A stretch of 64,000 bases of DNA from a bacterium (lineage in GTDB: Bacteria > Patescibacteriota > Microgenomatia > Curtissbacterales > GWA2-41-24). This document shows, piece after piece, positions 11,029-64,000 of this stretch. Numbering within the stretch: the stretch's first letter is position 1; each line of letters opens with the position of its first letter. The notes beneath the pieces were generated by a model. It had not been told where the DNA came from. It ran no database searches and worked only from the letters and a program-made list of their open reading frames with translations. The stretch spans positions 9,744 to 73,743 of the forward strand of contig JAKAJD010000001.1 in assembly GCA_021813945.1 (NCBI GenBank). Direction: 5' to 3'. The translations under genes were made by a program, and so were the position numbers.

Positions 11029-11781
11029 ATGAAAGGCGTTATTTTAGCAGGCGGTTTAGGCACAAGGCTTTACCCCTTAACTCACGCAACAAATAAGCAC
11101 TTACTTCCTGTTTTTGACCAGCCCATGATCTATTACCCAATCCAAACGCTTGTGGAAGCTGGAATAGAGGATATTTTGATAGTAGTCGGTGGACCTCACG
11201 CGGGCGATTTCATCCGAGTTTTACAAAACGGTAAAGAATTCGGCATTCGCCACCTCGAGTATGCATATCAAAACTCCGGTGATGGAGGGATTGCGGATGC
11301 CCTAAAGCTAGCGGAAGATTTTGCAGATGATGATTCAATTACTGTAATTTTAGGGGACAACTGTACAGATGCAGACCTTTCCAAAGAAGTAAAATCTTTC
11401 AAAGACGGAGCAGTTATATTCTTAAAAGACGTTGATGATCCCGAAAGGTTTGGTATTGCCCAATTAGACCCGAAAGATCCTAAAAAAGTGATCGGAATTG
11501 AAGAAAAACCGAAAAACCCAAAAAGTAACAAAGCTGTCACAGGAGTTTACATTTACGATAGTAATGTTTTTTCTCACATTAAAAAAATAAAACCGTCAGC
11601 AAGAGGCCAAATGGAAATTACCGATGTTAACAACATTTATATTAAAGAAGGTAAGCTCAGATGGGCCGAGCTTTCCGGATTTTGGTCGGACGCCGGCACT
11701 TTCGATAGTCTCTATAGAACGAACGTTTTTTGGGCTCGAAAACTCTTAGGCAAAAAGGAAAAAGACCTCACAACTTTTTAA
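11029..11781 (+). CDS. rmlA: Glucose-1-phosphate thymidylyl/uridylyltransferase (RmlA-family sugar nucleotidyltransferase, short form)
   Basis: N-terminus MKGVILAGGLGTRLYPLTHATNKHLLPVFDQPMIYYPIQTL matches the RmlA signature G(G/A)xGTRLxPxT. It is followed by rmlB, rmlC and rmlD. Confidence 0.75.
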   Translation: MKGVILAGGLGTRLYPLTHATNKHLLPVFDQPMIYYPIQTLVEAGIEDILIVVGGPHAGDFIRVLQNGKEFGIRHLEYAYQNSGDGGIADALKLAEDFADDDSITVILGDNCTDADLSKEVKSFKDGAVIFLKDVDDPERFGIAQLDPKDPKKVIGIEEKPKNPKSNKAVTGVYIYDSNVFSHIKKIKPSARGQMEITDVNNIYIKEGKLRWAELSGFWSDAGTFDSLYRTNVFWARKLLGKKEKDLTTF

Positions 11782-11785
11782 TCGC

Positions 11786-12808
11786 ATGAGCAAATTATTA
11801 GTAACAGGCGGCGCTGGATTTATAGGATCCAACTTTGTTCACTATTGGCTTAAAATCCATCCTGAAGATACAGTAGTTAACTTTGACAAACTTACTTATG
11901 CGGGCAACCTGGAAAATCTAAGCGACTTAAAAGAGAATCCTCATCACAAGTTCATAAAAGGTGATATTGCGAATTCCGACGATGTCAAAGGCGCGATGGA
12001 AGGAGTGGATATAGTCGTTAATTTTGCAGCCGAATCTCATGTCGACAGGTCTATTCAAGACCCGGCGCCATTTGTTTTAACAAATGTTGTTGGAACCCAA
12101 GTACTTTTAGATAATGCAAAAAACGCAAAGGTAAAGCGGTTTCACCATGTTTCAACAGACGAAGTTTTTGGTGCGCTAAAACTCGACTCAAAAGAAAAAT
12201 TTAACGAGGAGACAAAATACAACCCAAATAGTCCCTATGCTGCATCAAAAGCTGCATCAGATCATCTTGTACGGGCCTATTATGAAACTTACGGCTTGCC
12301 AATAACCATCACTAACTGTTCAAATAATTTTGGCCCATTTCAATACCCCGAAAAACTAATATCGCTTTCAATCACAAATTTACTCGAAGGCGATAAAGTG
12401 CCGGTTTATGGGGACGGTTTATATGTCCGGGACTGGCTTTACGTAGAAGATCACTGCAGCGCGATAGATTTAGTTCTGCAAAAAGGCAAAATTGGCCAAA
12501 CCTATTGCATAGGGGTCGACAACGATATTCCAAATATCAAAGTGATAAGGCTAATACTTGAGGCGCTGGGGTTTGGAGAAGATAAAATCGAGCATGTTAC
12601 CGATAGACCAGGGCACGATAGGCGCTATGCAATAGATGCAGCAAAAATTAAAAAAGAATTGGGCTGGAAACCAAGCTTCCAATTCGAAGAAGCAATCAAT
12701 TTAACTGTGAAGTGGTACAAAGAAAACGAAAAATGGTGGAAAAGCCTTAGGGGTAAAGATTACCTGGAATATTATCGTAAGCAGTATACTCAAAGGAGAG
12801 ACCAATGA
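11786..12808 (+). CDS. rmlB: dTDP-glucose 4,6-dehydratase
   Basis: LVTGGAGFIGSNFVHYW, the catalytic YAASKAASDHLVRAY, and a length of 340 aa. Confidence 0.85.
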   Translation: MSKLLVTGGAGFIGSNFVHYWLKIHPEDTVVNFDKLTYAGNLENLSDLKENPHHKFIKGDIANSDDVKGAMEGVDIVVNFAAESHVDRSIQDPAPFVLTNVVGTQVLLDNAKNAKVKRFHHVSTDEVFGALKLDSKEKFNEETKYNPNSPYAASKAASDHLVRAYYETYGLPITITNCSNNFGPFQYPEKLISLSITNLLEGDKVPVYGDGLYVRDWLYVEDHCSAIDLVLQKGKIGQTYCIGVDNDIPNIKVIRLILEALGFGEDKIEHVTDRPGHDRRYAIDAAKIKKELGWKPSFQFEEAINLTVKWYKENEKWWKSLRGKDYLEYYRKQYTQRRDQ

Positions 12809-13329
12809 ATAATAGTTATTTCGACCTTGCCCACCAGCAAGAACTGATTGAAGGAGTTATTGTCAGAAAACTAATAGTTCACAAAGACGAAACCGGCGGG
12901 CTTTTTGAGACGTTAAGAGTTGATTGGCCCGATGTTTACAATGAGACCAATTTAAAATTTCAAATGCAGTATATGTCAATTACACCATCCGCTATTGCCC
13001 GCGACGAAAAACAATGGCACGTCCACAAAAACCAAAGTGACCGTTTTATTTGCGCCTCAGGAAGGATTGTCACCGCAGTTTTTGACCCCAGAACGGCGTC
13101 AAAAACGAACGGAAAGTTAAATTTATTTGTGATGAGCCCCTCCTCTGAAGATGAAATGTATATGCTAGTAATCCCTCCCGAGACATATCATGGCTTCATG
13201 GTAATTTCAAAAGAACAGGGATATCTTTTAAACTTTCCAACACAACTTTATAATCCTCAAGACGAAGGACGAGTAGACCACGCGCAAGATTTTACCTGGC
13301 AAAGCGTAAGGGAGGATTTTGGGCTCTGA
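12805..13329 (+). CDS. rmlC: dTDP-4-dehydrorhamnose 3,5-epimerase-like (RmlC cupin)
   Basis: 174-aa cupin with WHVHKNQSDRFICASGRIVTAVFDPR and YHGFMV. The stop/start overlap places it between rmlB and rmlD. Confidence 0.7.
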   Translation: MNNSYFDLAHQQELIEGVIVRKLIVHKDETGGLFETLRVDWPDVYNETNLKFQMQYMSITPSAIARDEKQWHVHKNQSDRFICASGRIVTAVFDPRTASKTNGKLNLFVMSPSSEDEMYMLVIPPETYHGFMVISKEQGYLLNFPTQLYNPQDEGRVDHAQDFTWQSVREDFGL

Positions 13330-14227
13330 CATTCCCGAAAAAATCGCGGTAATTGGTGCATCCTCTATGGTTGGCTCCCGTTTCTGCGAGCTTTTCAAAA
13401 ATCAAAAAAATCTGATAAAAGCGGATCTTAAAGGCGAAAACAATATCGACATCACTAGTTCTGAATCAGTCAATGACTTTTTCAAAAGAAATGATTTTGA
13501 TGTCGCCATCCTTTTTTCAGCCTATACGGATGTGGATCGAGCCGAAACAGAGCGCGACAACAAGAACGGCATTTGCTGGAAAATAAACGTTGAAGGTTTA
13601 ACAAATATTGTCGAGACTTGCAAGAAAACCAAAAGAAAACTTGTTTTCATCTCAACAGACTTTGTTTTTGATGGTGAAAAAGGACCCTATAATGAAGATG
13701 CCAAAAGAGGGGGAGATCCCGCTAAAATCTCATGGTATGGTATTACAAAAATTAGAGGTGAAGAAACAGTTGAAACATTAGAAAAAGATTATATAATCGT
13801 AAGAATTTCTTATCCATATAGATCAAGTTTCCCCAAAAAAGAAGATTTTGCGAGACAAATCTTAAAAAGGTTTGACGAGGGCACACTTTATCCTATGTTT
13901 ACCGACCAGGTCTTCACACCAAGTTTTATTGACGATATACCGGAAGCCTTTGAATTCCTAATTCAAAATAGATCATCCGGTATCTTCCACATTGTCAGCC
14001 CTAATTCCACAACACCATACGATTTTGCTTACGAGCTTCTTAGAACATTTGGCAAGGATTCATCAATTCTTAAAAAGGGCTCCTTAGCCGATTTTTTAAA
14101 AATCGGTGATAAAGCTCCCAGACCGCTAAATTCTGCAATGCTCACTACAAAAATACAATATTTAGGCTATAAACCAACAGATTGGAGAGAAGGAATAGAA
14201 AAGATTTTTGCCCAAAGCAAAAATTGA
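13319..14227 (+). CDS. rmlD: dTDP-4-dehydrorhamnose reductase
   Basis: IAVIGASSMVGSRF Rossmann motif, YGITKIRGEE (YxxxK), a length of 302 aa, and a position completing rmlABCD. Confidence 0.75.
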   Translation: MGSDIPEKIAVIGASSMVGSRFCELFKNQKNLIKADLKGENNIDITSSESVNDFFKRNDFDVAILFSAYTDVDRAETERDNKNGICWKINVEGLTNIVETCKKTKRKLVFISTDFVFDGEKGPYNEDAKRGGDPAKISWYGITKIRGEETVETLEKDYIIVRISYPYRSSFPKKEDFARQILKRFDEGTLYPMFTDQVFTPSFIDDIPEAFEFLIQNRSSGIFHIVSPNSTTPYDFAYELLRTFGKDSSILKKGSLADFLKIGDKAPRPLNSAMLTTKIQYLGYKPTDWREGIEKIFAQSKN

Positions 14228-14258
14228 TTGAACTTCTCTAATTAGCTAAAATTAACAA

Positions 14259-15563
14259 ATGACAATCACCGTAATCGGCGCAGGTTATGTTGGACTGGTA
14301 ACTGCTTCTCTTTTTGCCGAACTTGGAAATAAGGTTTATTGCATTGATATTGATAAGGCAAGAATAGCAAATCTCAAAAAAGGGATTGTTCCGTTTTATG
14401 AACCATCACTTGCTGAATATATATCAAGAAGCATTAAAGAAAAGCGCCTCTTTTTTACAGACTCGTACAGCCAATCGGTCCCCAAATCTCAAATAGTCTT
14501 TATATGTGTTGGAACCCCTCCAAAAAATAATGGGGAAGCAGATCTAACATATCTCTTTTCAGCAGTCGAAGAAGCTGCAAAAAATTTAAAAGGTTACACC
14601 TTGATTACTATAAAAAGCACTATTCCAATAGGCTTTGAACACGATCTCGAAGCAATAGTTAAAAAATATGCAAAATCTAAATATGAATTCGCATCATCAC
14701 CGGAATTCTTACGAGAAGGCACAGCTATTTCTGATTCACTTCATCCCGACAGAATTGTAATAGGGACAAACAGCAAGAAAGCAGAAAAAATGTTGCTTGA
14801 ACTCCATGCTCCGCTCCCTGGTGAAAGGATTATCTGCGATACCAGGAGTGCTCAGCTAATAAAATATGCATCTAATTCTTTTTTAGCCACCAAAATATCC
14901 TTTGCTAACGCGCTTGCTGCAATTTGTGAGAAAACAGGCGCTGATGTTGCAAAAGTTGTTCAAGGGGTTGGTGCTGATAAAAGAATAGGACATTCCTATC
15001 TTTACCCCGGCGTTGGATACGGTGGCTCTTGTTTACCAAAAGACGTTCTGGCATTTATTGCCCAAACAAGAAACTTCGATTACGACTTCGAACTTTTAAG
15101 AGCCGTTGATGCCATAAATAACGCTCAAGTTTCAAGTTTGGTCAACAAAATTAGAAAATCTTTGGGTATAACTGATAAGACAGGTAAAAATCTAGAAGGA
15201 GTCGAAGTAGCAATTCTCGGATTAGCTTTCAAACCCAATACGGATGATATGAGAGATGCACCCTCAGTTAAAATCATAAACGTTCTTGTTGATCTTGGTG
15301 CAAACATCACCGCATACGATCCTAAAAGTAATGAAGTGGCCAAAAAAATATTGCCAAATATCAAATATGCCAACGATCTTTATAAAGCGATTAACGAAAA
15401 AGATTTAATGGTAATCGTTACAGAATGGCCTCAATTTGCTGAAATAGATTTGGAAAAAGCAAAAAAGCTTTTAAAAAAACCTATTATTGTTGATGGTAGA
15501 AATATTTTAGATCCCAAAAAAGCGAGAGATCTTGGATTTTCATACACTGGAATAGGCAGATGA
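14259..15563 (+). CDS. Nucleotide-sugar dehydrogenase (UDP-glucose 6-dehydrogenase family)
   Basis: MTITVIGAGYVGLVTA, the catalytic-Cys motif GGSCLPKD, and a length of 434 aa. Confidence 0.8.
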   Translation: MTITVIGAGYVGLVTASLFAELGNKVYCIDIDKARIANLKKGIVPFYEPSLAEYISRSIKEKRLFFTDSYSQSVPKSQIVFICVGTPPKNNGEADLTYLFSAVEEAAKNLKGYTLITIKSTIPIGFEHDLEAIVKKYAKSKYEFASSPEFLREGTAISDSLHPDRIVIGTNSKKAEKMLLELHAPLPGERIICDTRSAQLIKYASNSFLATKISFANALAAICEKTGADVAKVVQGVGADKRIGHSYLYPGVGYGGSCLPKDVLAFIAQTRNFDYDFELLRAVDAINNAQVSSLVNKIRKSLGITDKTGKNLEGVEVAILGLAFKPNTDDMRDAPSVKIINVLVDLGANITAYDPKSNEVAKKILPNIKYANDLYKAINEKDLMVIVTEWPQFAEIDLEKAKKLLKKPIIVDGRNILDPKKARDLGFSYTGIGR

Positions 15564-16513
15564 AAAAAGCGCTTATAACGGGGGCTGCAGGTTTCGTTGG
15601 CAATCATTTATCAGAACACCTAATTTTAAATGGTATTGAAGTGTTTGGATTAATTCATCCAAGTCATCCAGCGCAGCACTCGAAAAATTTGAGTAAAAAA
15701 ATCAAAATTATAAAGTGTGACCTTTTAAAAAAAAATGACTTAGAAAGGGTTTTGAAGGGAAATAGATTCGAATACATATTTCATCTGGCGGCTTTTTCAT
15801 CTCCACCCCAAAGCTTTATAGATCCTACGAACACACTAAAAAACAACATAATCGGACAACTGAATTTATTAGAAATTTTAGCTTCATCTAATTCAGACAC
15901 TAAAATCTTGATCGTGGGATCTTCCGATGAATATGGTGATGTAGAAGAAAAATATTTGCCTGTTGCGGAAGACACACCTTTTTCACCCCAATCACCGTAT
16001 GCTGTTTCAAAAATCGCTCAAGAAATGATAGGCCTCCAATTTTTTTTGCATAATAAGTTGAAAACGGTGCGGGTAAGGCCATTTAACCATATCGGCCCTG
16101 GGCAATCACTTCTATTTGCTATTCCTGCATTCGCTTCACAAATCGCAAAGCTCGAAAAAGCTGGCGGTGGAGAGATGTATGTAGGAAACTTAAATTCCTG
16201 GAGAGATTTTACTGACGTTCGCGACATTGCAAAGGCTTATTTATTAGCACTTGAGAAAGGCACGCCTGGTGATGTATATAATATTGGTTCTGGAAAAGTT
16301 TATAAAATTGCTGATATATTAGAGGAATTAATTTCGCTTGCAAAGGTTAAAATTAAAGTAAAATTGGATCCAAAACTTATAAGAAACATGGACGCTAAAA
16401 AGATATATTGCGATTTTTCTAAATTCAGCACCAAAACTGGATGGCAGCCACAGGTACCTATAGAAAAAACTCTTTTTGATACAATTGAGTACGAAAGAAA
16501 AAAGTTAAACTAA
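15560..16513 (+). CDS. NAD(P)-dependent epimerase/reductase, probably the GDP-4-keto-6-deoxy-D-mannose reductase partner of Gmd (Rmd/Fcl-like)
   Basis: LITGAAGFVGNHL and YAVSK (YxxxK). Its stop overlaps the gmd start. Confidence 0.6.
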   Translation: MKKALITGAAGFVGNHLSEHLILNGIEVFGLIHPSHPAQHSKNLSKKIKIIKCDLLKKNDLERVLKGNRFEYIFHLAAFSSPPQSFIDPTNTLKNNIIGQLNLLEILASSNSDTKILIVGSSDEYGDVEEKYLPVAEDTPFSPQSPYAVSKIAQEMIGLQFFLHNKLKTVRVRPFNHIGPGQSLLFAIPAFASQIAKLEKAGGGEMYVGNLNSWRDFTDVRDIAKAYLLALEKGTPGDVYNIGSGKVYKIADILEELISLAKVKIKVKLDPKLIRNMDAKKIYCDFSKFSTKTGWQPQVPIEKTLFDTIEYERKKLN

Positions 16514-18708: not shown

Positions 18709-18718
18709 ACATATTAAT

Positions 18719-20227: not shown

Positions 20228-20245
20228 TATAGGCGATTTTTTCAA

Positions 20246-21172: not shown

Positions 21173-21180
21173 TAAGTTTA

Positions 21181-21948: not shown

Positions 21949-22013
21949 AACTTCAAATTATCCAAAAAAGGAACTATAGTGGAAAAATACTTGGATCCTG
22001 TAAAATAAGGCAT

Positions 22014-29496: not shown

Positions 29497-29538
29497 GCTT
29501 ATTTTGACACTCCAAATTTTAAAAGTTAAAATTTTAAA

Positions 29539-31697: not shown

Positions 31698-31705
31698 ACG
31701 ATTTA

Positions 31706-33337: not shown

Positions 33338-33389
33338 AATTAATTATACGATCTTTTCACCTTATCGTTTAAAATAAACTGTCAGCTTA

Positions 33390-39125: not shown

Positions 39126-39126
39126 T

Positions 39127-39756: not shown

Positions 39757-39832
39757 CTGGAATTTACAGTTTAATTGTGTAAGTAAGAACTGTCAATTAC
39801 CTCTTTAAATCTGAATATTTTATAATTGATAG

Positions 39833-48948: not shown

Positions 48949-48999
48949 ACCGCTAATACTACCCTTCGACAAGTAAATTTTCCAGAAAGCTATGTTAAA

Positions 49000-50743: not shown

Positions 50744-50820
50744 TCTTTAGGTTGAAATCTAATTGGGAGTGAAATATTGCCAATTCTAATGTAAGATAAA
50801 GTATCGCAAGTTTAGCTTCC

Positions 50821-52446: not shown

Positions 52447-52449
52447 CAA

Positions 52450-57224: not shown

Positions 57225-58918
57225 AAAGATATTTATTTACTGGCAATTTAAATATATTCAAAAATCTAATAAAGAGAAACATGTTTTTAATTTTGATAAT
57301 CATTTTAGCTTGTGTATTACGTTTTTACATGTTAACAACGATTCCAATTGGTTTCGGTGATGATGAAGCAGCATTCGGATATAATGCTTACTCTTTGCTT
57401 AAAACTGGTCATGATGAATGGGGAAAATATTTTCCATTCCCTGTTTTTGAAAGTTTTGGAGATTGGAAACTTGCGCTTTACCTATATTTGGTGGCTATTA
57501 GTCAATTCTTCCTGGGTGTTACTGTTTTTGCGACCCGATTTCCTTCTGCGGCAATCGGGGTTCTCGCAGTCGTGGCAACCTATTTACTTACAAAAGAATT
57601 ATTCGATAAAAAAATTGCTCTGGTTGCCTCGTTGTTAATCACGATATCTCCATGGCACATCGCGGCTTCGAGAAACGCTTATGAATCTGATTTATTAATT
57701 TTTACAATAACTCTTGGTACCTATTTTTTTCTAAAAGGCCTGAAGAAAAAGTATTATATTACGTTGAGTTTCTTAATATTCGGATTGTCGTTTTATTTGT
57801 ATCGATCAGCCTGGACTTTCATCCCTATTTTCATTCTTTTTTTAGTATTTTTATACTGGGATAGCTTCAAAAATTTAAGGTTATTTTTGGCAAAAAATAT
57901 TTTCTTTTTTTTAATTCTTCTATTGCCTCTTATACCAACACTTATAACCTTTCGAGGCCAATCAAGATTTTTTCAAGAGAGTTTTATGTCAGGGATTCAA
58001 AACATAGGAATATCGAACGATGTGAATGAGAGAAGAGGGGATTGTGCACAATTCTTTGGAAATCTGTTCTGCAAACTTACCTATAACAAATATAATTTTT
58101 ATTTATCAAAATATATCGACAACTATATTGCTAATATTTCCCCGCAAACTTACTATCAGAACATTAACCCAACCGGATATCAATCATTTACTCCCAGGGG
58201 CTACTTCTACACATTTGAATTCCTTCTTGCTATACCAGGCTTAATTTACCTTATTAATATTAAGAAAAACTCTACAAAGATTTTATTTGTTTGGATTGTA
58301 GCTGTCCTCCTTGCACCATCATTAACAAGCGTGGGAAATCCAGGCAGACTCAATATAATTATGCCTGTACCTCAAATAATCGCTGCAATTGGTTTAATAT
58401 ATTTGATTCAAATGATTAAAAATAATAAGCTGCGTTTACCATTTATCATACTAGCAACTACGGTGGTAACTTTATCCTTTATTAGATTTGTTGCTGACAC
58501 AATGAGCTACTATCCAAAATATGCTGCAATGTATCAAAGATATGGCTACGGAGAACTTTTTAAATACGTTGAAAGTCAGAAATCAAATTATTCTCAAATT
58601 ATCGTATCGAGAAAGTCAGATGACGCAAAGCAATACATTCATTATTTGTTTTTTACTAAATACGACCCTTCTAATTATCAAAAAAATGCATTTTTTTCTA
58701 GAGATAAATTAGGGTTTAGATCTGTCGATCAAATAGATAACATAAAATTTTCCTCATCCGTACCGCCTTTAAACACTATTCCTATAGGAACTATGATAGT
58801 AAGCGGAAATAACGAGTTATCGAGTAAAGATCTACGCCCCCTTAAAACGATAGTGGACCCCAAAGGCGATGTACTATTTAATGTTTATGAACTAACTGCG
58901 CACGCATATGAAGAATAA
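57221..58918 (+). CDS. ArnT/PMT-like GT-C glycosyltransferase (tandem paralog 5 of 6)
   Basis: GFGDDEAAFGYNAYSLLKTGHDEWGKYFPF...ISPWHIAASR. Confidence 0.7.
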   Translation: MKRYLFTGNLNIFKNLIKRNMFLILIIILACVLRFYMLTTIPIGFGDDEAAFGYNAYSLLKTGHDEWGKYFPFPVFESFGDWKLALYLYLVAISQFFLGVTVFATRFPSAAIGVLAVVATYLLTKELFDKKIALVASLLITISPWHIAASRNAYESDLLIFTITLGTYFFLKGLKKKYYITLSFLIFGLSFYLYRSAWTFIPIFILFLVFLYWDSFKNLRLFLAKNIFFFLILLLPLIPTLITFRGQSRFFQESFMSGIQNIGISNDVNERRGDCAQFFGNLFCKLTYNKYNFYLSKYIDNYIANISPQTYYQNINPTGYQSFTPRGYFYTFEFLLAIPGLIYLINIKKNSTKILFVWIVAVLLAPSLTSVGNPGRLNIIMPVPQIIAAIGLIYLIQMIKNNKLRLPFIILATTVVTLSFIRFVADTMSYYPKYAAMYQRYGYGELFKYVESQKSNYSQIIVSRKSDDAKQYIHYLFFTKYDPSNYQKNAFFSRDKLGFRSVDQIDNIKFSSSVPPLNTIPIGTMIVSGNNELSSKDLRPLKTIVDPKGDVLFNVYELTAHAYEE

Positions 58919-60488
58919 AATATTCATTTTAATAATCTTAATATCGCTAGCTTTGAGATTTTATAAATTGGGAGTTATTCCAGCTGGCTTGGATTGGGAC
59001 GAGGTAAGTAACGCTTACAATGCTTATTCGATTCTAAAAACAGCACGTGATGAATTCGGCACATTCTTACCTTTGACAAACAGATCATTCGACGATTATA
59101 AACCGCCTCTTTATATGTATCTAAATGTTCCAACAGTTGCTATTTTTGGCCTTACGCCGTTTGCCGCAAGATTGCCCTCCGCCCTTTTAGGTACTCTATC
59201 AACCATTTTCATCTATTTTTTGGTAAAACGCCTATTCAAAAAAGAAGCACTTGCTCTCATATCAATGGCACTTGCAGCAACTTCGCCATGGCAGCTGCAA
59301 TTTTCCAGAGTCGGTTTTGAAGCAAATTTAGGTTTGTTTATGGCAATATCATCATTTACACTTCTTCTTTATGCGTTGCCCATGTTGAAGGAAAAATTTT
59401 CATCTCGAAAAGCCACTGTCTTTCTACTATCTGCATTCTCATTTGGATTAAGCTTTTACAGTTACCATTCAGAGCGTATCTTTATACCATTATTATTTCT
59501 CGTATCCCTTATAATTTACCGGCAAGATTTTTTAAAGATACCCAAGAAACTTTGGGTGATTTTTATCGCCATTACAATATTTCTGGTACTTCCTTTTTTC
59601 ATTTTTACTCCATTTAAAGCAATATCACAAAGGCTTGACGAAACAAGCCAATCGACAACAATTCAAAACATCGACCAATCGATTGTTTTTATGAAGGAAG
59701 ATAACTATTCCTATCTTTCTAAAATTATCCATAACAGGAGATTATTAATTGCAACCAATTATGCAAAGAATTATTTAGCTAACTTTGATGTGAACTATTT
59801 ATTTATCAAGGGCGACAACAACCTTCGTCATCATATTGAAAATATGGGCATGCTTTACCTTATAGAGTTGCCTTTACTTATATATGGTCTCTACTTTTTT
59901 ATTAAAGAAAGATCCAAAAGTACAATTTTTATTCTAGCTTGGCTCATCCTATCACCTATTCCAGCAGCACCAGGCAACGTAGCGCCCCACGCAATCAGAA
60001 GTTTTACCATGATTATTTCGCTAGAAATTGTAATTAGTTTTGCAATATTAAAAATTTATGAGCAGATTAAGTGGAAAAAAGCATACATGGGATTACTCCT
60101 TTCAGCTTATTTTTTGACATTTATCGTCTACTTGCATAATTATTACGTTCACTATTGGCACGATAATGCCTCCTGGTGGCAGCATGGATATCTTCAAGCA
60201 GTTTCAAAGACTAAAGTAGTCAAAAACAACTACAATCGGATAATAGTCGATCCATCAATTGAGCAAGCATACATTTTCTGGTTATTTGGCACCAAATACG
60301 ACCCAAAAAGTTATCAGATAAATGGAAATAAGGAACATTTTGATAAATATTACTTCACACCTGTCCAGCCTGAAAATTCAAAAGACTTATTTGTAACAGC
60401 AAAAAGCTTGCCCCAAGAGTTTGACATAATTGACACAATAAATTTTCCAAATGGCGAGAAAAACATATCAATAGGTCATCCAAAATAA
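58908..60488 (+). CDS. ArnT/PMT-like GT-C glycosyltransferase (tandem paralog 6 of 6)
   Basis: LDWDEVSNAYNAYSILKTARDEFGTFLPL...TSPWQLQFSR. Confidence 0.7.
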   Translation: MKNKIFILIILISLALRFYKLGVIPAGLDWDEVSNAYNAYSILKTARDEFGTFLPLTNRSFDDYKPPLYMYLNVPTVAIFGLTPFAARLPSALLGTLSTIFIYFLVKRLFKKEALALISMALAATSPWQLQFSRVGFEANLGLFMAISSFTLLLYALPMLKEKFSSRKATVFLLSAFSFGLSFYSYHSERIFIPLLFLVSLIIYRQDFLKIPKKLWVIFIAITIFLVLPFFIFTPFKAISQRLDETSQSTTIQNIDQSIVFMKEDNYSYLSKIIHNRRLLIATNYAKNYLANFDVNYLFIKGDNNLRHHIENMGMLYLIELPLLIYGLYFFIKERSKSTIFILAWLILSPIPAAPGNVAPHAIRSFTMIISLEIVISFAILKIYEQIKWKKAYMGLLLSAYFLTFIVYLHNYYVHYWHDNASWWQHGYLQAVSKTKVVKNNYNRIIVDPSIEQAYIFWLFGTKYDPKSYQINGNKEHFDKYYFTPVQPENSKDLFVTAKSLPQEFDIIDTINFPNGEKNISIGHPK

Positions 60489-61277
60489 ATGAAAAAAGAA
60501 AAAAGAATCAAACTATCCGTCGCTCTTGCAACGTATAACGAAGAAGAAAATATAGTAGATTGCCTTGAATCTGTTAAAGATGTGGGGGATGAGATTGTGG
60601 TTGTTGATGGTAATTCACAAGACAGAACAGCTGAACTGGCAAAAATTAATGGGGCAAAGGTCATTAAAACTGAAAATAAAAAAATGTTTCACATCAACAA
60701 AAATTTGGCAATTAAAACCTGTAGGGGAGAGTGGATACTACTTTTGGATGCAGACGAAAGAGTAACGCCCGACCTAGCCAAAGAGATCAAAAACATCATC
60801 CATGGTAAATCCACAAATGATGGTTACTGGGTTAATCGCAAAAATTGGTTTTTGGGTGGCTTTTTAACAAAAGGAGGAGCATATCCAGACTCGGTAATAA
60901 GGCTATTTAAAAAAGGCAAGGGCCACCTTCCCCAAATCAGCGTTCATGAACAAGTTGCAATTGAGGGCTCATTGGGCCACCTAAAAAACGATCTCCTTCA
61001 TCTGGCGGACCCAAATTTTTCGAGATATTTAACAAGGGCTAACCGCTATACTGATTTGACGGCAGAGAACCTAAAGAATAGCAAAATCGGCCAAGGACCA
61101 TTGCAAATTGTGTTTTACATGCTCATAAAACCATCCGTCACTTTTACAGACATTTATATTCGCCATGGAGGCTTCAAAGATGGATTTAGAGGTTTTGTGT
61201 GGGCTTTGTTTTCGGGAGCTCATCATTTTTATGCCTATTCAAAGTATTTAACCGAAAAATCACAAAAAAAATTATAA
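60489..61277 (+). CDS. GT2 glycosyltransferase (DADER-motif subfamily)
   Basis: LSVALATYNEEENIVDCL, VDGNSQDRT, LLDADERVTPDL. Confidence 0.7.
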   Translation: MKKEKRIKLSVALATYNEEENIVDCLESVKDVGDEIVVVDGNSQDRTAELAKINGAKVIKTENKKMFHINKNLAIKTCRGEWILLLDADERVTPDLAKEIKNIIHGKSTNDGYWVNRKNWFLGGFLTKGGAYPDSVIRLFKKGKGHLPQISVHEQVAIEGSLGHLKNDLLHLADPNFSRYLTRANRYTDLTAENLKNSKIGQGPLQIVFYMLIKPSVTFTDIYIRHGGFKDGFRGFVWALFSGAHHFYAYSKYLTEKSQKKL

Positions 61278-61360
61278 TTCGAACCTAAATTGCCTACTTG
61301 TTTAAAAGCTAAAAAATTGTTATCAAAGTAATATATACCCTTTTTCGAAAGGAGGTAGCC

Positions 61361-61390
61361 ATGGCAAAGAAAAAGAAAAAGAAAAAATAA
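61361..61390 (+). other. Mini-ORF MAKKKKKKK with the strongest Shine-Dalgarno sequence in the window; a candidate leader peptide or regulatory element
   Basis: aaaGGAGGTagccATGgcaaagaaaaagaaaaagaaaaaaTAA. The SD GGAGGT lies at 61351-61356, in a window that otherwise almost lacks SDs. Confidence 0.25.
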
Positions 61391-61401
61391 GATCTTTCTT
61401 G

Positions 61402-61457
61402 CCCACCTTAGCGGTTTTTAAAAGATTTTCTATTAAAAGCGGAAGGTGGGTTTTCTT
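61402..61457 (+). terminator. Hairpin CCCACCTT...(33-nt loop)...AAGGTGGG followed by TTTTCTT; terminator- or attenuator-like
   Basis: An 8-bp perfect inverted repeat (61402-61409 and 61443-61450) followed by a T-run, immediately after the poly-Lys mini-ORF. Confidence 0.3.
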
Positions 61458-61497
61458 ACTCGGATTCATAAATTCTCCTATTTACCCAAAACTGAGC

Positions 61498-61556
61498 TAT
61501 AATTTAGAAGAAATTACATAAGCTAAAGCGAATATAATTTAGAAGAAATTACATAA
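61498..61556 (+). repeat. Two identical 24-bp direct repeats TATAATTTAGAAGAAATTACATAA, 35 bp apart, upstream of the GT4 gene
   Basis: Copy 1 is at 61498-61521 and copy 2 at 61533-61556. Each contains TATAAT, and copy 2 ends 8 nt before the GTG start at 61565. Confidence 0.6.
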
Positions 61557-61564
61557 TCTTAATA

Positions 61565-62593
61565 GTGAAAGTTGCAATAGACGCTAGCCCTCTTAAAAAC
61601 CAGCACAACACACGCGGTATAGGTAGTTACACTCAAAATTTAATTGAATCTTTCAAAAGGCTTAAAGAGGGAATTGAATTAGAGCAATTTTATGACCCAA
61701 AAAATCCTCCTAACGTTGACGTTGTTCACTATCCTTACTTCGACTTCTACTTTAACACTTTACCAATTTTTAAAAAACAAAAACGAGTTGTCACCATACA
61801 TGACGTCATACCCTTAGTTTTTCCAGATAAGTTTCCTGCAGGTCTTAAAGGTAGGTTTAACCTTCAAAGGCAAAAGCTTGCTTTGAAAAACACTGACGCT
61901 GTAATTTGCGACTCGGTAACATCAAAGCAAGACATAATAAATAAATTGGGGTATCCACAAGATAAAATACATGCCGTTTATCTTGCTCAGGGAAAAAATT
62001 TTAAAAAAATCAACGATAAAAAATTATTAAACAAAATCTCAAAAAAATATAAATTACCATTGAGATTTATCCTTTATGTTGGAGATGTAAACTGGAATAA
62101 AAATTTGCCAAATTTACTAGAAGCATCAAAACTGGCGGACGTCAATCTCGTTATGGTAGGAAAAGCAATCCTTGATGAAAATTTAGAACAAACAAAATCT
62201 CTTATATCAAAAATGAAAAGTATTGGTATTTCAGAAAAAGTCCTGAGGCTTGGTTACATCCAAGAGGAGGATCTAATCTCAATTTATAATCTGGCATCAG
62301 CAACACTGGTACCCTCGTTTTACGAAGGCTTCGGCCTTCCTGTTTTAGAAAGTATGACTTGCGGCACGCCAGTTATCTGTTCAAAAAACTCATCTCTGAC
62401 CGAAATAGCAGAGGAAGCAGCAATCTATTGCGACCCCAATGATTCAAAAGATATTGCTCTAAAAATAAACCAAACCATAGGACTAAAAAAGCCAGATCTC
62501 TCAGAGAGATTAATATCTCATGCAAAAAAATTCAGTTGGGAAAAGGTGGCAACTGAAACAATCAGAGTGTATAAGAAGGTGGCGTTGGAGTAA
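61565..62593 (+). CDS. GT4 (GT-B, group 1) glycosyltransferase
   Basis: GTG start. YEGFGLPVLESMTCGTPVICS matches the GT4 E-x7-E region. Length 342 aa. Confidence 0.75.
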   Translation: MKVAIDASPLKNQHNTRGIGSYTQNLIESFKRLKEGIELEQFYDPKNPPNVDVVHYPYFDFYFNTLPIFKKQKRVVTIHDVIPLVFPDKFPAGLKGRFNLQRQKLALKNTDAVICDSVTSKQDIINKLGYPQDKIHAVYLAQGKNFKKINDKKLLNKISKKYKLPLRFILYVGDVNWNKNLPNLLEASKLADVNLVMVGKAILDENLEQTKSLISKMKSIGISEKVLRLGYIQEEDLISIYNLASATLVPSFYEGFGLPVLESMTCGTPVICSKNSSLTEIAEEAAIYCDPNDSKDIALKINQTIGLKKPDLSERLISHAKKFSWEKVATETIRVYKKVALE

Positions 62594-63682
62594 ATGTATA
62601 AAAAGATATTTTTAATATTTACTGCCTGGCGCCTTTTTTTATTTTTTATAGCTTTTCTGGCTCCAAACTTTATTCACCAATTCGGTAATAAATTTCCTTA
62701 TGTCGGTTTATTAGAATCTTCAAACCTGCCTCATTTTCTCTGGTCTTTTGGAAACTTTGATGGTGTTCACTATCTTGGAATCGCTAGCCATCTTTATGAC
62801 TTTCAATATACTCAGGCTTTTTTCCCTTTATATCCATTGCTTATTCGTTTTTTGTCACCCGTATTTATGGGCAATATATTGCTCACCGGTTTGATAATCT
62901 CCAACACTTTTTTTCTGCTCGGACTCTTCGTCTTTTACAAATTAGTTTCAGAATCGTCAAATGAAAAGACTGCTTTTTGGTCAGCTTTATTCATTCTGGC
63001 ATTCCCGACATCGTTTTATTTTGGATCTGTTTACACAGAAGGTTTATTTTTTTTCTTAATCACCTCTAGCTTTTATCTTTACAGCAAAAATAAAATATTC
63101 TTAGCATCCGTGGTCGGTGCGTTTTCTTCGGCAACACGCTTGATTGGCGTCTTCATGCTCCCTGCGCTCATTAAAAGAAAAGCCGTAATTCGGCAAGCTG
63201 TATTACTTCTCATTCCTTCCGGTTTATCTCTTTACATGGCATATCTCTATATCAAATTTCATAACGCTTTCTATTTCCTGACAGCCCAAACAATATTTGG
63301 CCAGGAACGATCTACCTCGAAGATAATACTTCTCCCCCAGGTTTTTTTTAGATACATCAAGATATTATTAACTACCAGGGGTGAAGTCTTAGCTATTTCA
63401 TCTTTAGAAATTTCATCAACAATTTTTGCATTTCTAATTCTCGCTCTGGCGTCAAAAAAAATGAAAGCAGACTGGCTGATTTTCAGCTGGCTTGCCGTTT
63501 TGGTGCCAACCCTAACAGGAACACTGGCTTCTATGCCCAGATATGTCCTAATTGCTTTTCCGATTTTTATCTATCTAGGAATGATAAATAATCTGTATAT
63601 CAAATTAACAGTACTCACATTGTTCCTAATCCTTCTTACAATTACCACAGCTTTTTTCACACAAGGGTATTGGGTAGCCTGA
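62594..63682 (+). CDS. PIG-V-like (GPI mannosyltransferase 2 family, GT76-like) polytopic mannosyltransferase
   Basis: FDGVHYLGIASHLYDFQYTQAFFPLYPLL matches the Mannos_trans_2 signature (WD..hF..IA..GY.....AFFPlyPll). It has about 10 TM helices. Confidence 0.55.
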   Translation: MYKKIFLIFTAWRLFLFFIAFLAPNFIHQFGNKFPYVGLLESSNLPHFLWSFGNFDGVHYLGIASHLYDFQYTQAFFPLYPLLIRFLSPVFMGNILLTGLIISNTFFLLGLFVFYKLVSESSNEKTAFWSALFILAFPTSFYFGSVYTEGLFFFLITSSFYLYSKNKIFLASVVGAFSSATRLIGVFMLPALIKRKAVIRQAVLLLIPSGLSLYMAYLYIKFHNAFYFLTAQTIFGQERSTSKIILLPQVFFRYIKILLTTRGEVLAISSLEISSTIFAFLILALASKKMKADWLIFSWLAVLVPTLTGTLASMPRYVLIAFPIFIYLGMINNLYIKLTVLTLFLILLTITTAFFTQGYWVA

Positions 63683-63710
63683 AGCTCTAAATTTATGCTA
63701 TTATCCAGCT

Positions 63711-64000
63711 ATGGGCTTTTATAAGCTTTTAATAACAAGCGTAGTTTTAAACGTTACGGCGAACATTTTACTGAAAAAGGGTGTTGTTTTAGCGGGTGGT
63801 GTAAGTGGAGATAAAACAAAAGTCATAGGAGATATATTTCGAGTTGCCCTTAGCCCATATATTTTAGGCGGCTTGATACTATACGGCCTCTCATTTTTGA
63901 TTTGGTTGAGAGTTTTAAGCTTTAACGACCTGTCTAAGTCCTATCCAATCTTTGCGACAATCGTATTCTTACTCACTACAGTAGCTTCCATTCAATTTCT
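63711..64000 (+). CDS. Small 4-TM SMR/EamA-like transporter (ArnE/ArnF-like candidate polyprenyl-P-sugar flippase subunit), 3'-truncated at the window edge
   Basis: The frame is open from the ATG at 63711 to the window end: MGFYKLLITSVVLNVTANILLKKG...DLSKSYPIFATIVFLL. It was not in the ORF track because it has no stop codon in the window. Confidence 0.5.
   Translation, partial: MGFYKLLITSVVLNVTANILLKKGVVLAGGVSGDKTKVIGDIFRVALSPYILGGLILYGLSFLIWLRVLSFNDLSKSYPIFATIVFLLTTVASIQF

Follow-up and report, generated by a model that had tools for sequence, protein, structure and literature searches.

Known systems of this kind follow a 'three-component' logic based on polyprenyl-phosphate-sugars and GT-C transferases (PMC5836110, PMC8035078, PMC11127046, bioRxiv 10.1101/180810). 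Several three-component systems per Rha-CWPS locus are on record (PMC9574508, PMC10821137), and LAM synthesis relies on 'an array of essential GT-C members' with Ppm1-derived donors (PMC3123699, PMC3485146).

The stretch of DNA analysed here (the window, 64,000 nucleotides) belongs to an ultra-small, uncultured Curtissbacteria-like bacterium (Microgenomates, CPR/Patescibacteria). Between positions 11029 and 64000, the ORF list of the window comprises 43 closely spaced ORFs (40 on the + strand) in a compact, co-directional layout with a median intergenic gap of -4 bp. Membrane glycosyltransferases of the GT-C fold account for 17 genes and 52% of the DNA in this region (nine PMT_2, one PMT_2-related, two YfhO, two YfhO/PTPS-like, one MptA/B-like, one PIG-V-like and one without a Pfam model). 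The cluster continues for at least 10 kb beyond the window end on the source contig, giving a length of at least 63 kb, about 6% of the roughly 1-Mb genome. Its features, named in the text by their start positions, are as follows.

11029..14227, +, rmlA, rmlB, rmlC and rmlD, dTDP-L-rhamnose route (Pfam NTP_transferase, GDP_Man_Dehyd/Epimerase, dTDP_sugar_isom, RmlD_sub_bind)
14259..17491, +, UDP-glucose 6-dehydrogenase, SDR sugar-nucleotide enzyme (15560) and GDP-mannose 4,6-dehydratase (Pfam, NCBIfam)
17488..18708, +, full-length PfDPMS-type polyprenyl-phosphate glycosyltransferase, GT2 catalytic plus GtrA/DPMS TM domain (Glycos_transf_2 91.5 bits, GtrA_DPMS_TM 66.8 bits; 5mlz 5.6e-28)
18719..20227, +, GT-C, PMT_2 family, group B, paralog of 39833 (PMT_2 47.6 bits, cut-off 26.1)
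20246..21172, +, aspartate carbamoyltransferase pyrB (TIGR00670 325.7, cut-off 237)
21181..21948, +, DPMS-like GT2, soluble catalytic domain only, 255 aa (5mlz 9.3e-15, then ArnC, GtrB)
22014..23225, +, GT-C, MptA/B-like
23215..25659, +, GT-C, YfhO family, 814 aa (YfhO 76.6 bits, cut-off 28.5; 30% identity to 43985)
25659..27257, +, GT-C, YfhO/PTPS_related-like, with C-terminal beta-sandwich and final TM helix
27236..29496, +, SDR epimerase/decarboxylase-like enzyme and second NDP-sugar dehydrogenase (Pfam Epimerase, UDPG_MGDP_dh)
29539..30255, +, DPMS-like GT2, 238 aa (5mlz 7.2e-18 over query residues 1-221, then GtrB)
30255..31697, +, GT-C related to PMT_2, without a Pfam match of its own
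31706..33337, -, GT-C of a family without a Pfam model
33390..35051, +, GT-C, PMT_2 group A (PMT_2 42.1 bits; 27-34% identity to tandem-array genes)
35048..36772, +, putative GT-C, paralog of 25659 (30.6% identity over 576 aligned positions to 25626/25659; PTPS_related weak, E 0.0018)
36721..38217, +, Wzx/MOP-family lipid-linked oligosaccharide flippase (Polysacc_synt_3 169 bits)
38214..39125, +, conventional GT2, GmaR/SunS-like, not DPMS-like (best PDB match GmaR, 4.4e-16)
39127..39756, -, cyclophilin-type PPIase with N-terminal hydrophobic segment (Pro_isomerase 143.9 bits)
39833..41278, +, GT-C, PMT_2 group B (PMT_2 28.3, cut-off 26.1; PMT 22.5, cut-off 22.7)
41275..44004, +, two conventional GT2 and one GT4, cytoplasmic Leloir transferases (Pfam)
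43985..46306, +, GT-C, YfhO family, 773 aa (YfhO 61.8 bits, cut-off 28.5)
46267..47202, +, conventional GT2 (best PDB matches chondroitin synthase, ppGalNAc-T2)
47192..47959, +, DPMS-like GT2, 255 aa (5mlz 1.3e-7, the only PDB match)
47956..50743, three unrelated genes breaking the cluster: PPAT plus DUF359 (DPCK) fusion (-), dihydroorotase-like gene, PolB-type 3'-5' exonuclease
50821..60488, +, six tandem PMT_2-family GT-C paralogs (50821, 52450, 54074, 55557, 57221, 58908; PMT_2 42-54 bits in all six)
60489..62593, +, GT2 (GmaR/SunS-like group) and GT4, conserved followers of the PMT_2 array (Pfam)
62594..63682, +, GT-C, PIG-V-like, Mannosyl_trans2 (PF04188 26.7, cut-off 22.4)
63711..64000, +, cut by the window end, ArnE/ArnF-like small (SMR/EamA-type) membrane protein, candidate polyprenyl-P-sugar flippase (L084 11118-11486)

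The core of the initial annotation, namely DPMS/GtrB-type synthases associated with numerous GT-C transferases and several NDP-sugar routes that feed them, is borne out by concordant sequence, profile and fold evidence. Several deoxyhexose and uronic-acid precursor routes are indeed represented. RmlB (476.6 bits, TIGR01181 cut-off 365) and Gmd (431.7, TIGR01472 cut-off 415) pass NCBIfam equivalog cut-offs; RmlA and RmlD are top NCBIfam matches under theirs, and RmlC is assigned as best match in the profile search. The two NDP-sugar dehydrogenases pass TIGR03026 at the subfamily level (445 for the first and 321 for the second, cut-off 190), and the top equivalog of the second is UDP-ManNAc dehydrogenase, under its cut-off.

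The four GT2 synthases at 17488, 21181, 29539 and 47192 had been called Dpm1/GtrB-like, and the assignment holds: all carry the Pfam GT2 domain and have P. furiosus DPMS (5mlz) as their best solved relative, with GtrB and ArnC ranking next for the first three. The 17488 protein covers both the catalytic and the C-terminal TM domain of PfDPMS (residues 23-272 and 284-372 aligned), and the DxD and GSR motifs line up in this alignment. The top NCBIfam matches of 21181 are PgfS, DPhHxTase, ArnC and AglJ, and those of 47192 are AglJ (4.8e-20) and PpgS (4.3e-13), all under cut-offs. In contrast, two control GT2s of the same cluster, 38214 and 46267, match GmaR/SunS or chondroitin synthase/ppGalNAc-T first and DPMS far lower (1.9e-4 and the N-terminus alone for 38214). 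No GT2 and no GT-C protein of the cluster reaches an NCBIfam equivalog cut-off, so that sugars and acceptors cannot be assigned from the families.

On profile and fold evidence, the other polytopic proteins are predicted to be GT-C enzymes rather than unrelated transporters, the sole exception being the Wzx flippase. Motif inspection reveals a conserved Asp/Glu after TM1 in the GT-C proteins. The invariant Asp is present in 18719, which is 27% identical to 39833, while 39833 has DQ in place of DE. Precomputed PF26314 (MptA_B_family) matches are found on the 22014 protein and on 120 of 120 homologs among the matches listed, although the call on 22014 was not reproduced in a profile search with an older Pfam copy. 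Alignment of 30255 to PMT_2 profile A1 by hhalign gives 93.6% as a single sequence and 98.2% (E 3.1e-14, 126 columns) with five locus homologs. GtrA occurs as a fusion partner in a remote relative of 31706, and 35048 would be a GT-C enzyme by the fold of its paralog 25659.

In the tandem array, PMT and/or STT3-N are also matched in five of the six genes, 54074 matching PMT_2 only. Five array genes are mutually 30-41% identical, and 54074 diverges further, at 24-30% over partial alignments; the DE motif is invariant across all six. Positional orthologs in other Curtissbacteria arrays share 41-76% identity. From these one-to-one orthologs, together with a paralog identity of only about 27-41% within Curtissbacteria, we infer that every paralog has a distinct linkage or acceptor specificity, in the manner of an assembly line outside the membrane.

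The proposal that each synthase is followed by a GT-C gene stands for 17488, which precedes a PMT_2 gene, and fails for 47192, which is followed by three unrelated genes before the array at 50821; its GT-C neighbour lies two genes upstream (YfhO, 43985), with none directly downstream. No stand-alone GtrA is encoded in the window. After the ArnE/F-like gene (ArnF 45.7 bits and ArnE 34.2 bits, both under cut-offs; Multi_Drug_Res and EamA weak), the source contig carries, just beyond the window, an SDR epimerase, a fifth DPMS-like GT2 (5mlz match 1e-18) and its partner, a DUF2304 (GacJ-like) gene (75.8, cut-off 25.5). It is more likely that the six-gene array pairs with this fifth synthase than with 47192. 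The description as iterated modules overstated the regularity: module compositions differ, paralogs share just 22-41% identity and the fourth module (47192), in the form described, is absent. Segmental duplication was rejected as the origin of the modules.

The Wzx flippase and eight conventional GT2/GT4 genes point to a second, cytoplasmic lipid-linked-oligosaccharide route in the cluster. No priming phosphoglycosyltransferase, Wzy polymerase, ligase or LCP gene is found in the window or the next 10 kb, so this branch is incomplete at the locus. Housekeeping genes are also interspersed (pyrB, the pyrC-like dihydroorotase-like gene, the cyclophilin, the CoA gene and the exonuclease); their co-location with glycosylation genes may be due in part to a compacted genome and not to one shared pathway. 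The embedded pyrB probably lies outside the glycosylation pathway. The cyclophilin, with a TM/signal-like segment at residue 4, is probably exported.

Gene order, including the embedded pyrB (at the same position in loci L087 and L088), is conserved in other Curtissbacteria, whose copies of the query protein are 55-63% identical to it. Arrays of two to nine PMT_2 paralogs, followed by GT2, GT4, PIG-V-like and DPMS-like GT2 genes, recur across Microgenomates. Among 79 Microgenomates loci, which were chosen for containing a PMT_2 homolog so that proximity to GT-C genes is partly built in, the array is followed, in this order, by homologs of the GT2 in 68 and of the GT4 in 46, the PIG-V-like gene follows GT2-GT4 in 40, and GT4, PIG-V-like GT-C and DPMS-like GT2 follow the array in 32-46. 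The neighbourhood comparison indicates a vertically conserved chromosomal cluster of Curtissbacteria, with an array cassette common across Microgenomates. The word 'island' hints at a feature peculiar to this genome and does not fit, and a mobile island was likewise rejected.

We consider it likely that the locus is a vertically inherited envelope-glycosylation super-cluster working as follows. Cytoplasmic enzymes would supply dTDP-rhamnose, a GDP-6-deoxyhexose precursor, UDP-uronic acids and epimerised derivatives. Five DPMS/GtrB/ArnC-type GT2s (four in the window, one beyond) would charge polyprenyl phosphate with single sugars at the inner membrane face. The lipid-linked sugars would then be flipped, candidates being the GtrA-like TM domain of 17488, the ArnE/F-like protein and possibly Wzx, and the 17 GT-C transferases, whose first outside loops all carry an acidic motif, would pass them to outer-face acceptors. 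In parallel, conventional GT2/GT4 enzymes would build a lipid-linked oligosaccharide exported by Wzx, which may be a scaffold for GT-C extension or decoration.

Among the acceptors, a glycan or lipoglycan would rank first and a protein second. A lipoglycan or heteropolysaccharide assembled outside the membrane, by the logic of mycobacterial PIM/LM/LAM, arabinogalactan or the GPI anchor, is quite possible, if short of probable: a GT4/GT2-made glycolipid or lipid-linked primer would be flipped and then elongated and branched stepwise by PIG-V-like, MptA/B-like, YfhO and PMT_2 paralogs using polyprenyl-P-sugars. The recurrent cassette after the array, the MptA_B_family member, the LAM precedent and the positional orthologs, as expected of fixed, distinct steps, are consistent with it. 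The weak best matches of GT4 61565 include lipid-glycosylating enzymes (MshA, GlcN-PG synthase, IagA/BgsA, DAG glucosyltransferase), but these are generic and far under cut-offs, and lipid-anchor chemistry is not inferable. CPR bacteria are not known to synthesise lipids de novo, which counts against this reading, and in distant Microgenomates all window paralogs map onto the same one or two genes, which fits independent expansions better than a fixed pathway. A more tentative reading is that a wall polysaccharide containing rhamnose is decorated, in the way known from streptococcal GAC (GacI/J/K/L) and lactococcal Rha-CWPS; here, RmlABCD and the cytoplasmic GT2/GT4 enzymes would build the backbone, to which several independent three-component systems would attach variable side chains. 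It agrees with rmlABCD at the head of the cluster, with the rhamnosyltransferase subfamily as top NCBIfam match of GT2 41275 (under cut-off), with the GT2/DUF2304 pair and with the multiple systems known per Rha-CWPS locus, but the 74 kb examined contain no GacO/WecA-type primer, GacDE-like ABC exporter or LCP ligase, and the GT-C count is far above that of Lactobacillales loci.

Protein O-glycosylation, in which PMT_2/PMT-like paralogs act as actinobacterial Pmt or eukaryotic PMTs and transfer polyprenyl-P-sugars to Ser/Thr of secreted proteins (S-layer, pilins, adhesins), the substrate class or sugar differing per paralog, is as tentative as the wall-polysaccharide reading. Five of the six array genes score above the Pfam PMT (PF02366) cut-off, and all keep the DE motif, but PMT/PMT_2/STT3 cross-matches are generic to the GT-C N-terminal core, and the GT-C proteins of the cluster lack the WWDxG oligosaccharyltransferase motif. 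The top NCBIfam match of Wzx, 'O-glycosylation flippase' (121.5 bits, under its cut-off), the protein/peptide glycosyltransferases GmaR and SunS as best solved relatives of the conserved GT2 group 38214, 42152 and 60489, and the apparently exported cyclophilin argue for a protein acceptor. However, no MIR domain and no acceptor protein are identifiable in the cluster, rmlABCD, Wzx and GT4 are better suited to polysaccharide, and the C-terminal beta-sandwich of 25659 looks like an accessory domain of the kind found in carbohydrate-active enzymes, a point in favour of a glycan acceptor. It is quite unlikely that there is no single system, genome compaction having juxtaposed unrelated envelope-glycosylation genes, with many PMT_2 paralogs redundant or fast-evolving for surface variation (phage/host evasion). 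The interspersed housekeeping genes, the compositional heterogeneity found by a scan of the window, and the variable array size with lineage-specific gains such as the 55557/57221 duplication would fit, but gene order is conserved, the cassette order is retained across class-level lineages, and orthologs (48-76%) are much more conserved than paralogs (27-41%), so that most copies seem to be under purifying selection for distinct roles.

A literature search found no paper joining CPR/Patescibacteria with GT-C, PMT_2, GT39, GT83, YfhO or ArnT, in agreement with the initial statement that this is not a described system as such. While Lactobacillales loci hold one to three GT-C genes each, the super-cluster holds 17, and the fifth GT2 and DUF2304 form a pair resembling GacI/GacJ of streptococcal GAC (bioRxiv 10.1101/180810). 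The cluster layout, common to the whole lineage, appears undescribed; the mechanism itself is known, and would be a multiplied form of the polyprenyl-phosphate-sugar/GT-C logic alongside a Wzx-dependent route.

The genes between 11029 and 64000 form a compact, largely co-directional cluster rich in predicted glycosylation genes. At an ORF threshold of at least 150 aa, 53 ORFs were found in the window and 43 within 11029–64000, where 40 of the 43 lie on the plus strand. Neighbouring genes are separated by a median of −4 bp, with 25 overlapping junctions and a single gap of more than 100 bp. In this 287-bp gap (61278–61564) no promoter-like site was seen; a single weak terminator-like site lies just upstream of it (61200–61222). 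The first 11 kb of the window are occupied by housekeeping genes, encoding SecA, RF2, FtsE/FtsX, a PcsB-like M23 protein, Sua5 and GreA. Upstream of the cluster there is also a lamin-tail-domain (LTD) protein (6574–7539; 321 aa), possibly a surface protein, which has a hydrophobic segment at its C-terminus. The same window proteins are present in several independent assemblies, which makes misassembly unlikely. The closest named homologs of several of them belong to Candidatus Curtissbacteria and other Microgenomates, and the proposed assignment to a Curtissbacteria-like member of the CPR (Patescibacteria) rests on these best matches. The initial annotation set the cluster at 11029–64000; the gene content agrees with this, but the cluster is wider, since it continues past 64000 on the source contig.

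The membrane proteins of the cluster had been annotated as GT-C transferases, a view borne out by Pfam, profile and fold analyses: 17 GT-C proteins were found, covering 52% of 11029–64000, and the Wzx/MOP flippase 36721 (ORFs are named by their start coordinate) is the only polytopic cluster protein outside this class. Nine of them match PMT_2 above the Pfam gathering score, namely 18719, 33390, 39833 and the products of a tandem array of six genes (50821, 52450, 54074, 55557, 57221 and 58908). YfhO (PF09586; cut-off 28.5 bits) is matched by 23215 (76.6 bits) and 43985 (61.8 bits), for which PgfM1/M2 are weak NCBIfam matches, and 62594 falls in Mannosyl_trans2/PIG-V, again above the gathering score. 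No family of the older Pfam release matches 22014; in precomputed annotation, this protein and all 120 of its listed homologs carry PF26314 (MptA_B_family). When 30255 was pooled with five homologs from related loci, comparison with the PMT_2 profile gave a probability of 98.2% (E 3.1e-14, 126 columns). Structure models were made for 31706 (minus strand) and 25659, since neither has a usable family match; PF09586 or PF10131 is carried by only part of the 25659 homologs, and 35048 is a paralog of 25659 (30.6% identical). The best fold matches of the modelled proteins are ALG12 and Pmt4, at identities of only 7–13% to enzymes of these types, and their structural neighbours include AftA, AftB, AftD and PimE.

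The catalytic carboxylate of GT-C enzymes sits shortly after the first transmembrane helix, and an acidic motif is present at this position, shortly past helix 1, in every one of the 17 proteins. In the PMT_2 paralogs the loop-1 Asp is invariant and forms part of a DE pair in eight of nine, while the 31706 family has FGDExDN and the 25659 family HD. Five array members (50821, 52450, 55557, 57221 and 58908) also match PMT (PF02366) above the cut-off. The MIR domain is not matched by Pfam in any PMT_2 paralog; to our knowledge, bacterial Pmt enzymes likewise lack it. Membership of the ArnT family (GT83) was rejected, as NF009784 gave 23.4 bits for 50821 against a cut-off of 567 and the other proteins tested gave no match. 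An STT3-type oligosaccharyltransferase was rejected for 55557 and 57221, which lack the WWDxG motif: STT3 Pfam matches are limited to the N-terminal transmembrane core, and neither WWD nor W[WYF]DxG occurs in any of the 17 GT-C proteins.

The 31706 family (31706–33337, minus strand, in the window) has neither a Pfam nor an NCBIfam model. An exhaustive profile search returned 20 close representatives (E<1e-30), 203 proteins at E<1e-10 and 864 at E<1e-3 (e.g. P0001–P0018 and P0260–P0404), and no Pfam GT-C family was found in ten distant relatives that were scanned. One relative, P0317, carries a GtrA domain at its N-terminus. Many others are 670–700 aa long, with the match starting around residue 140–180, as would be expected, from length and offset, for GtrA fusions of the same kind. 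The fusion of a 31706 relative to GtrA gives extra support to a mechanism based on synthase, flippase and GT-C.

The four GT2 proteins 17488, 21181, 29539 and 47192, previously described as Dpm1/GtrB-like, retain that description. All match Glycos_transf_2 in Pfam, and the top match among solved structures is in every case the Pyrococcus furiosus dolichol-phosphate-mannose synthase (PfDPMS, 5mlz), with E-values of 5.6e-28, 9.3e-15, 7.2e-18 and 1.3e-7, respectively. DPMS is followed by Synechocystis GtrB (5ekp) and ArnC for the first three proteins and is the sole match for 47192. GtrB and ArnC are two further structurally characterised polyprenyl-phosphate glycosyltransferases. The 406-aa protein 17488 has a C-terminal GtrA_DPMS_TM domain (66.8 bits in Pfam) and four predicted hydrophobic segments. 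It aligns with PfDPMS over both the catalytic domain (23–272) and the transmembrane domain (284–372), with DxD ('mDGDmsH' opposite 'mDaDlqH') in register and GSR conserved, and thus has the complete PfDPMS architecture; the other three (238–255 aa) consist of the catalytic domain alone. Two control GT2s from the cluster behave differently: GmaR and SunS come top for 38214, and chondroitin synthase and ppGalNAc-T for 46267, with DPMS far lower and aligned at the N-terminus only. The top NCBIfam models for the four synthases are PgfS (first for three of the GT2s), AglJ, dolichyl-phosphate hexose transferase, PpgS and ArnC, and none of the four reaches an equivalog cut-off. Taken together, these matches support a predicted DPMS/GtrB/ArnC-type enzyme class.

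The control protein 38214 belongs to a group of three GT2 paralogs (38214–39125, 42152–42949 and 60489–61277; 31–36% identical) and is the sole member of the group compared with solved structures, GmaR (22ao) being matched at 4.4e-16 and SunS next. GmaR is the Listeria flagellin O-GlcNAc transferase, and SunS is a peptide S-glycosyltransferase.

The arrangement of synthases and GT-C genes is less regular than had been proposed. Three of the four window synthases (17488, 21181 and 29539) are directly followed by a GT-C gene, as claimed for all of them, but 47192 is not: it lies two genes downstream of the YfhO gene 43985, preceded by this gene and a GT2, and the last three genes of the list below lie between it and the PMT_2 array. 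The claim of iterated modules is too strong, given that the compositions differ and paralog identities across the cluster are 22–41%. The groups consist, in turn, of GT2-TM and PMT_2; of GT2, MptA/B-like, YfhO and YfhO-like; of GT2, PMT_2-like, novel GT-C, PMT_2, YfhO-like and Wzx; and of PMT_2, GT2, GT2, GT4, YfhO, GT2 and GT2. Segmental duplication of whole GT2 plus GT-C modules is unsupported, with differing compositions and identities of 22–30%. Several genes of other functions are interspersed:

Genes of other functions within the cluster
20246–21172: pyrB, between the first two modules (TIGR00670, 325.7 bits; cut-off 237)
39127–39756, minus strand: cyclophilin-type PPIase with an N-terminal hydrophobic segment, inside the cluster
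47956–49020, minus strand: fusion of an archaeal-type phosphopantetheine adenylyltransferase (PPAT) and DUF359, directly after 47192 (NF001985, 142.7 bits, cut-off 104; PF04019, 98.8 bits)
49000–50076: dihydroorotase-like gene, 28 kb downstream of pyrB (257.6 bits; cut-off 279)
50069–50743: stand-alone PolB-type 3'-5' exonuclease, 224 aa (DNA_pol_B_exo2, RNase_H_2), between the dihydroorotase-like gene and the PMT_2 array, with no NCBIfam match

The cyclophilin is probably exported, as its N-terminal segment suggests. The DUF359/GTP-dependent dephospho-CoA kinase domain of 47956–49020 stays below the NCBIfam equivalog cut-off; on its domain matches, the protein is predicted to be the last two steps of CoA synthesis, in archaeal form, fused in a bacterium. 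The gene pyrB occupies the same position in two other Curtissbacteria loci (L087, 4611–5537; L088, 826–1620).

At least three routes to sugar precursors had been proposed to feed the cluster, in keeping with the finding that RmlB and Gmd pass NCBIfam equivalog cut-offs and two NDP-sugar dehydrogenases pass a subfamily cut-off. RmlA, RmlC and RmlD are assigned as best matches, and two more SDR enzymes (15560 and 27236) are present. The flippase candidates are the GtrA-like domain of 17488, the ArnE/F-like protein at 63711 and possibly Wzx 36721; no stand-alone GtrA is found in the window, where the only GtrA_DPMS_TM domain is the C-terminal one of 17488. A priming phosphoglycosyltransferase, a Wzy/ligase and an LCP protein are missing from the 74 kb examined, with no match to Bac_transf, Glycos_transf_4, Wzy_C or LCP in ORFs of at least 150 aa from the window and L084, the source-contig locus that runs past the window end; such genes may be located in another part of the genome.

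In L084, the PIG-V-like gene is followed by a 122-aa protein at 63711, whose best models are ArnF (45.7 bits) and ArnE (34.2 bits), both below their cut-offs; ArnF and ArnE are the subunits of the Und-P-Ara4N flippase. An SDR epimerase, a 229-aa GT2 and a DUF2304 protein come next. This fifth GT2 (L084, 12418–13107) falls in the DPMS-like group in local HMMs (111.7 versus 40.4 bits) and matches 5mlz at 1e-18, with ArnC next among solved structures. The DUF2304 gene (13104–13457; 75.8 bits, cut-off 25.5) overlaps it by 4 bp. The GacI/GacJ and PpgS/Rv3632 pairs have this GT2–DUF2304 layout, and in them the small partner is reported to bind the Und-P-sugar synthase and to stimulate it (bioRxiv 10.1101/180810). 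Donors for the PMT_2 array and the PIG-V-like enzyme are most plausibly supplied by the fifth synthase rather than by 47192. Further downstream, L084 contains more GT4, GT2 and methyltransferase genes. Among the GT4/GT2 genes lie two proteins with no Pfam or NCBIfam match (17242–18798, 518 aa; 19891–21089, 588 aa and incomplete at the locus end), which may be further unmodelled GT-C or polymerase-type enzymes.

Among relatives, gene order is kept within Curtissbacteria, and a core cassette recurs across Microgenomates. A profile scan with the PMT_2 group-A alignment (6 sequences), using one genome per GTDB species, gave at least 598 stretches, of which at least 587 were confirmed. The best 79 of these loci come essentially all from Microgenomates-type CPR MAGs, covering Curtiss-, Levy-, Woese-, Shapiro-, Davies-, Gottesman- and Blackburnbacteria. 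The Microgenomates-type PMT_2 cassette of the named Curtiss-, Woese- and Levybacteria records is also present in many records titled 'uncultured Gammaproteobacteria' (L005, L010, L011, L013 and about 35 others), whose titles are presumably placeholders or wrong taxonomy. By local HMMs, 78 of the best 79 loci have two to nine PMT_2 paralogs per ~21-kb locus (modes 4 and 6) and one locus, L076, has a single copy. The recurring order is PMT_2 array, GT2 (60489-like), GT4 (61565-like), PIG-V-like, [ArnE/F-like], [epimerase], DPMS-like GT2 and [DUF2304].

Cassette genes in the best 79 loci, counted in ~21-kb loci, many of which end at the flank limit
GT2 (60489-like), directly after the PMT_2 array: 68 of 79
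GT4 (61565-like): 46 of 79
PIG-V-like: 40 of 79
DPMS-like GT2: 50 of 79
PIG-V-like and DPMS-like GT2 together: 32 of 79

In the same loci, a GT-C gene is found no more than 200 bp away from 21 of 60 DPMS-like GT2 genes, a proportion inflated by the choice of loci for containing GT-C genes; the conserved gene order carries more weight. Two other Curtissbacteria share the upstream half of the cluster; in them, Gmd, GT2-TM, PMT_2, pyrB, GT2, MptA/B-like, YfhO and YfhO-like genes are followed by SDR, dehydrogenase, GT2, polytopic proteins, Wzx and GT2, with small insertions and losses. The homologs of 25659 (o25626) in these two genomes are 57–63% identical to the window protein.

Within the array, 50821 corresponds to the first gene in five of the seven closest loci (64–76% identity) and maps to gene 5 in L007 (40%), while 52450, 54074, 57221 and 58908 follow in order in Curtissbacteria arrays (46–76%). 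In most related arrays a single gene corresponds to both 55557 and 57221 (41.5% identical), indicating that the two arose by recent tandem duplication; both copies are found only in L005. In more distant classes, the same one or two genes are the counterparts of all window PMT_2 paralogs. The evolution of the array is one of birth and death, with purifying selection on distinct copies.

GC content is 0.39–0.43 in the first 14 kb and mostly 0.32–0.37 beyond, rebounding to 0.40 at 16–18 and 20–22 kb. The drop reaches soluble enzymes and the housekeeping genes at 48–50 kb, so it is more than a codon effect of membrane proteins, and synteny argues against recent acquisition as its origin. A mobile or horizontally acquired island was rejected: the gene order, including pyrB, is kept in two other Curtissbacteria, no tRNA or Rfam family was found in the window, and there is no integrase or transposase family among its Pfam matches.

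It has been established for three-component systems that a GT2 loads polyprenyl phosphate, a flippase translocates the product and a GT-C enzyme transfers the sugar outside (PMC5836110, PMC8035078, PMC11127046). The best-supported reading of the cluster is this principle, multiplied. Five synthases would each place a monosaccharide on polyprenyl phosphate, a flippase would move it across the membrane and the 17 GT-C enzymes would transfer the sugar on the outer side; alongside, conventional GT2/GT4 enzymes could feed a Wzx-dependent branch of lipid-linked oligosaccharides. As to the acceptor, there are hints of a protein, in the PMT matches, the conserved GmaR/SunS-like GT2, the top match of Wzx ('O-glycosylation flippase') and the apparently exported cyclophilin, and several acceptors may coexist. 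A more ambitious extension of the multiplied principle, which we hold tentatively and consider rather improbable, is a Microgenomates-wide assembly line outside the membrane. The enzymes of the PMT_2 arrays, the PIG-V-, MptA/B- and YfhO-like enzymes and at least one GT-C family unmodelled by Pfam would each draw on one of several polyprenyl-phosphate sugars and add a defined residue to a heteropolysaccharide anchored in lipid or in the wall. Such a line would be a functional analogue of LAM/arabinogalactan assembly in mycobacteria or of GPI assembly, independently evolved. If true, it could be the major determinant of the episymbiont surface and of host attachment.

CPR bacteria represent a large share of bacterial diversity and are thought to live attached to host cells, and their surface chemistry is little known. 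In the literature searched, mostly outside subscription journals, CPR/Patescibacteria were not linked to GT-C, PMT_2, GT39, GT83, YfhO or ArnT; a paper on a Microgenomates genome goes no further than a count of '29 glycosyl transferases' (PMC7143001). Every component class is already known and the mechanism would not surprise a specialist. The cluster stands apart in packing 17 GT-C enzymes and five synthases into ~63 kb of a ~1-Mb genome, in being dominated by tandem PMT_2 arrays, in its Microgenomates-wide cassette and in having at least one GT-C family that Pfam does not cover. The commitment of ~6% of a minimal genome to the cluster, together with the core cassette kept across Microgenomates, points to an elaborate, selected envelope glycoconjugate central to these cells. 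This investment and its conservation are noteworthy, and experimental handles on the CPR cell surface are provided by five candidate Und-P-sugar synthases, by the 'PMT_2 array, GT2, GT4, PIG-V-like, ArnE/F-like, GT2 + DUF2304' cassette as a genomic marker and by the GT-C family unmodelled by Pfam.

Among known systems, the cluster resembles the three-component systems (GtrB/CsbB GT2, GtrA/GtcA flippase and a YfhO/GtlB/GtrC GT-C), such as B. subtilis CsbB/GtcA/YfhO and S. mutans Pgf, in that DPMS/GtrB-like GT2s adjoin GT-Cs and YfhO members are present. However, these systems have one synthase and one GT-C, in comparison with five and 17 here, where the GT-Cs are mostly PMT_2 rather than YfhO/GtrC and neither a stand-alone GtrA nor teichoic-acid genes are found. 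Loci with two or three such systems are described in lactococci and streptococci (PMC9574508, PMC10821137), and the principle seems scalable far past the one to three systems per locus of Firmicutes. S. pyogenes GacI/GacJ/GacK/GacL and M. tuberculosis PpgS/Rv3632/Rv3779 share a short DPMS-like GT2 followed by DUF2304, a nearby GT-C and rml genes (bioRxiv 10.1101/180810). Here, the GT2–DUF2304 pair maps just beyond the window end, an ArnE/F-like protein is the candidate flippase instead of the Wzx-like GacK, and the associated GT-Cs are PIG-V-like plus the PMT_2 array, not GacL-like.

The Arn pathway (Ugd, ArnA, ArnC, ArnE/F and ArnT) shows a similar sub-cluster logic of NDP-sugar dehydrogenase, SDR, GT2, SMR-type flippase and GT-C; ArnC is the second solved relative of 21181 and of the fifth GT2, and ArnF is top for the 122-aa protein. 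Nevertheless, the cluster has no ArnB or ArnD and a monoderm-type CPR cell has no lipid A. The eukaryotic and archaeal Dol-P-Man pathways (DPM1/PfDPMS with PMT, ALG3/9/12 and PIG-M/V/B) differ in the bacterial setting of the cluster and its lack of MIR and the OST-type WWDxG, but share the PfDPMS architecture of 17488 and, as in GPI synthesis, a PIG-V-like member that comes after a GT4. Finally, the synthesis of LM/LAM and arabinogalactan in Corynebacteriales (Ppm1; PimE, MptA-D, AftA-D and Emb) also involves many GT-C paralogs, with an MptA_B_family member in the cluster, where no Emb-type or PI-anchor genes were identified. These mycobacterial GT-Cs assemble a polymer outside the membrane from polyprenyl-phosphate-sugar donors, and such multiplicity is well described in Corynebacteriales, M. 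tuberculosis having ~15–17 GT-Cs, about the same number as the cluster. In mycobacteria their genes are spread across a genome of 4 Mb and served by two or three donors, whereas here they are gathered, with five synthases, in 53 kb of a 1-Mb genome.
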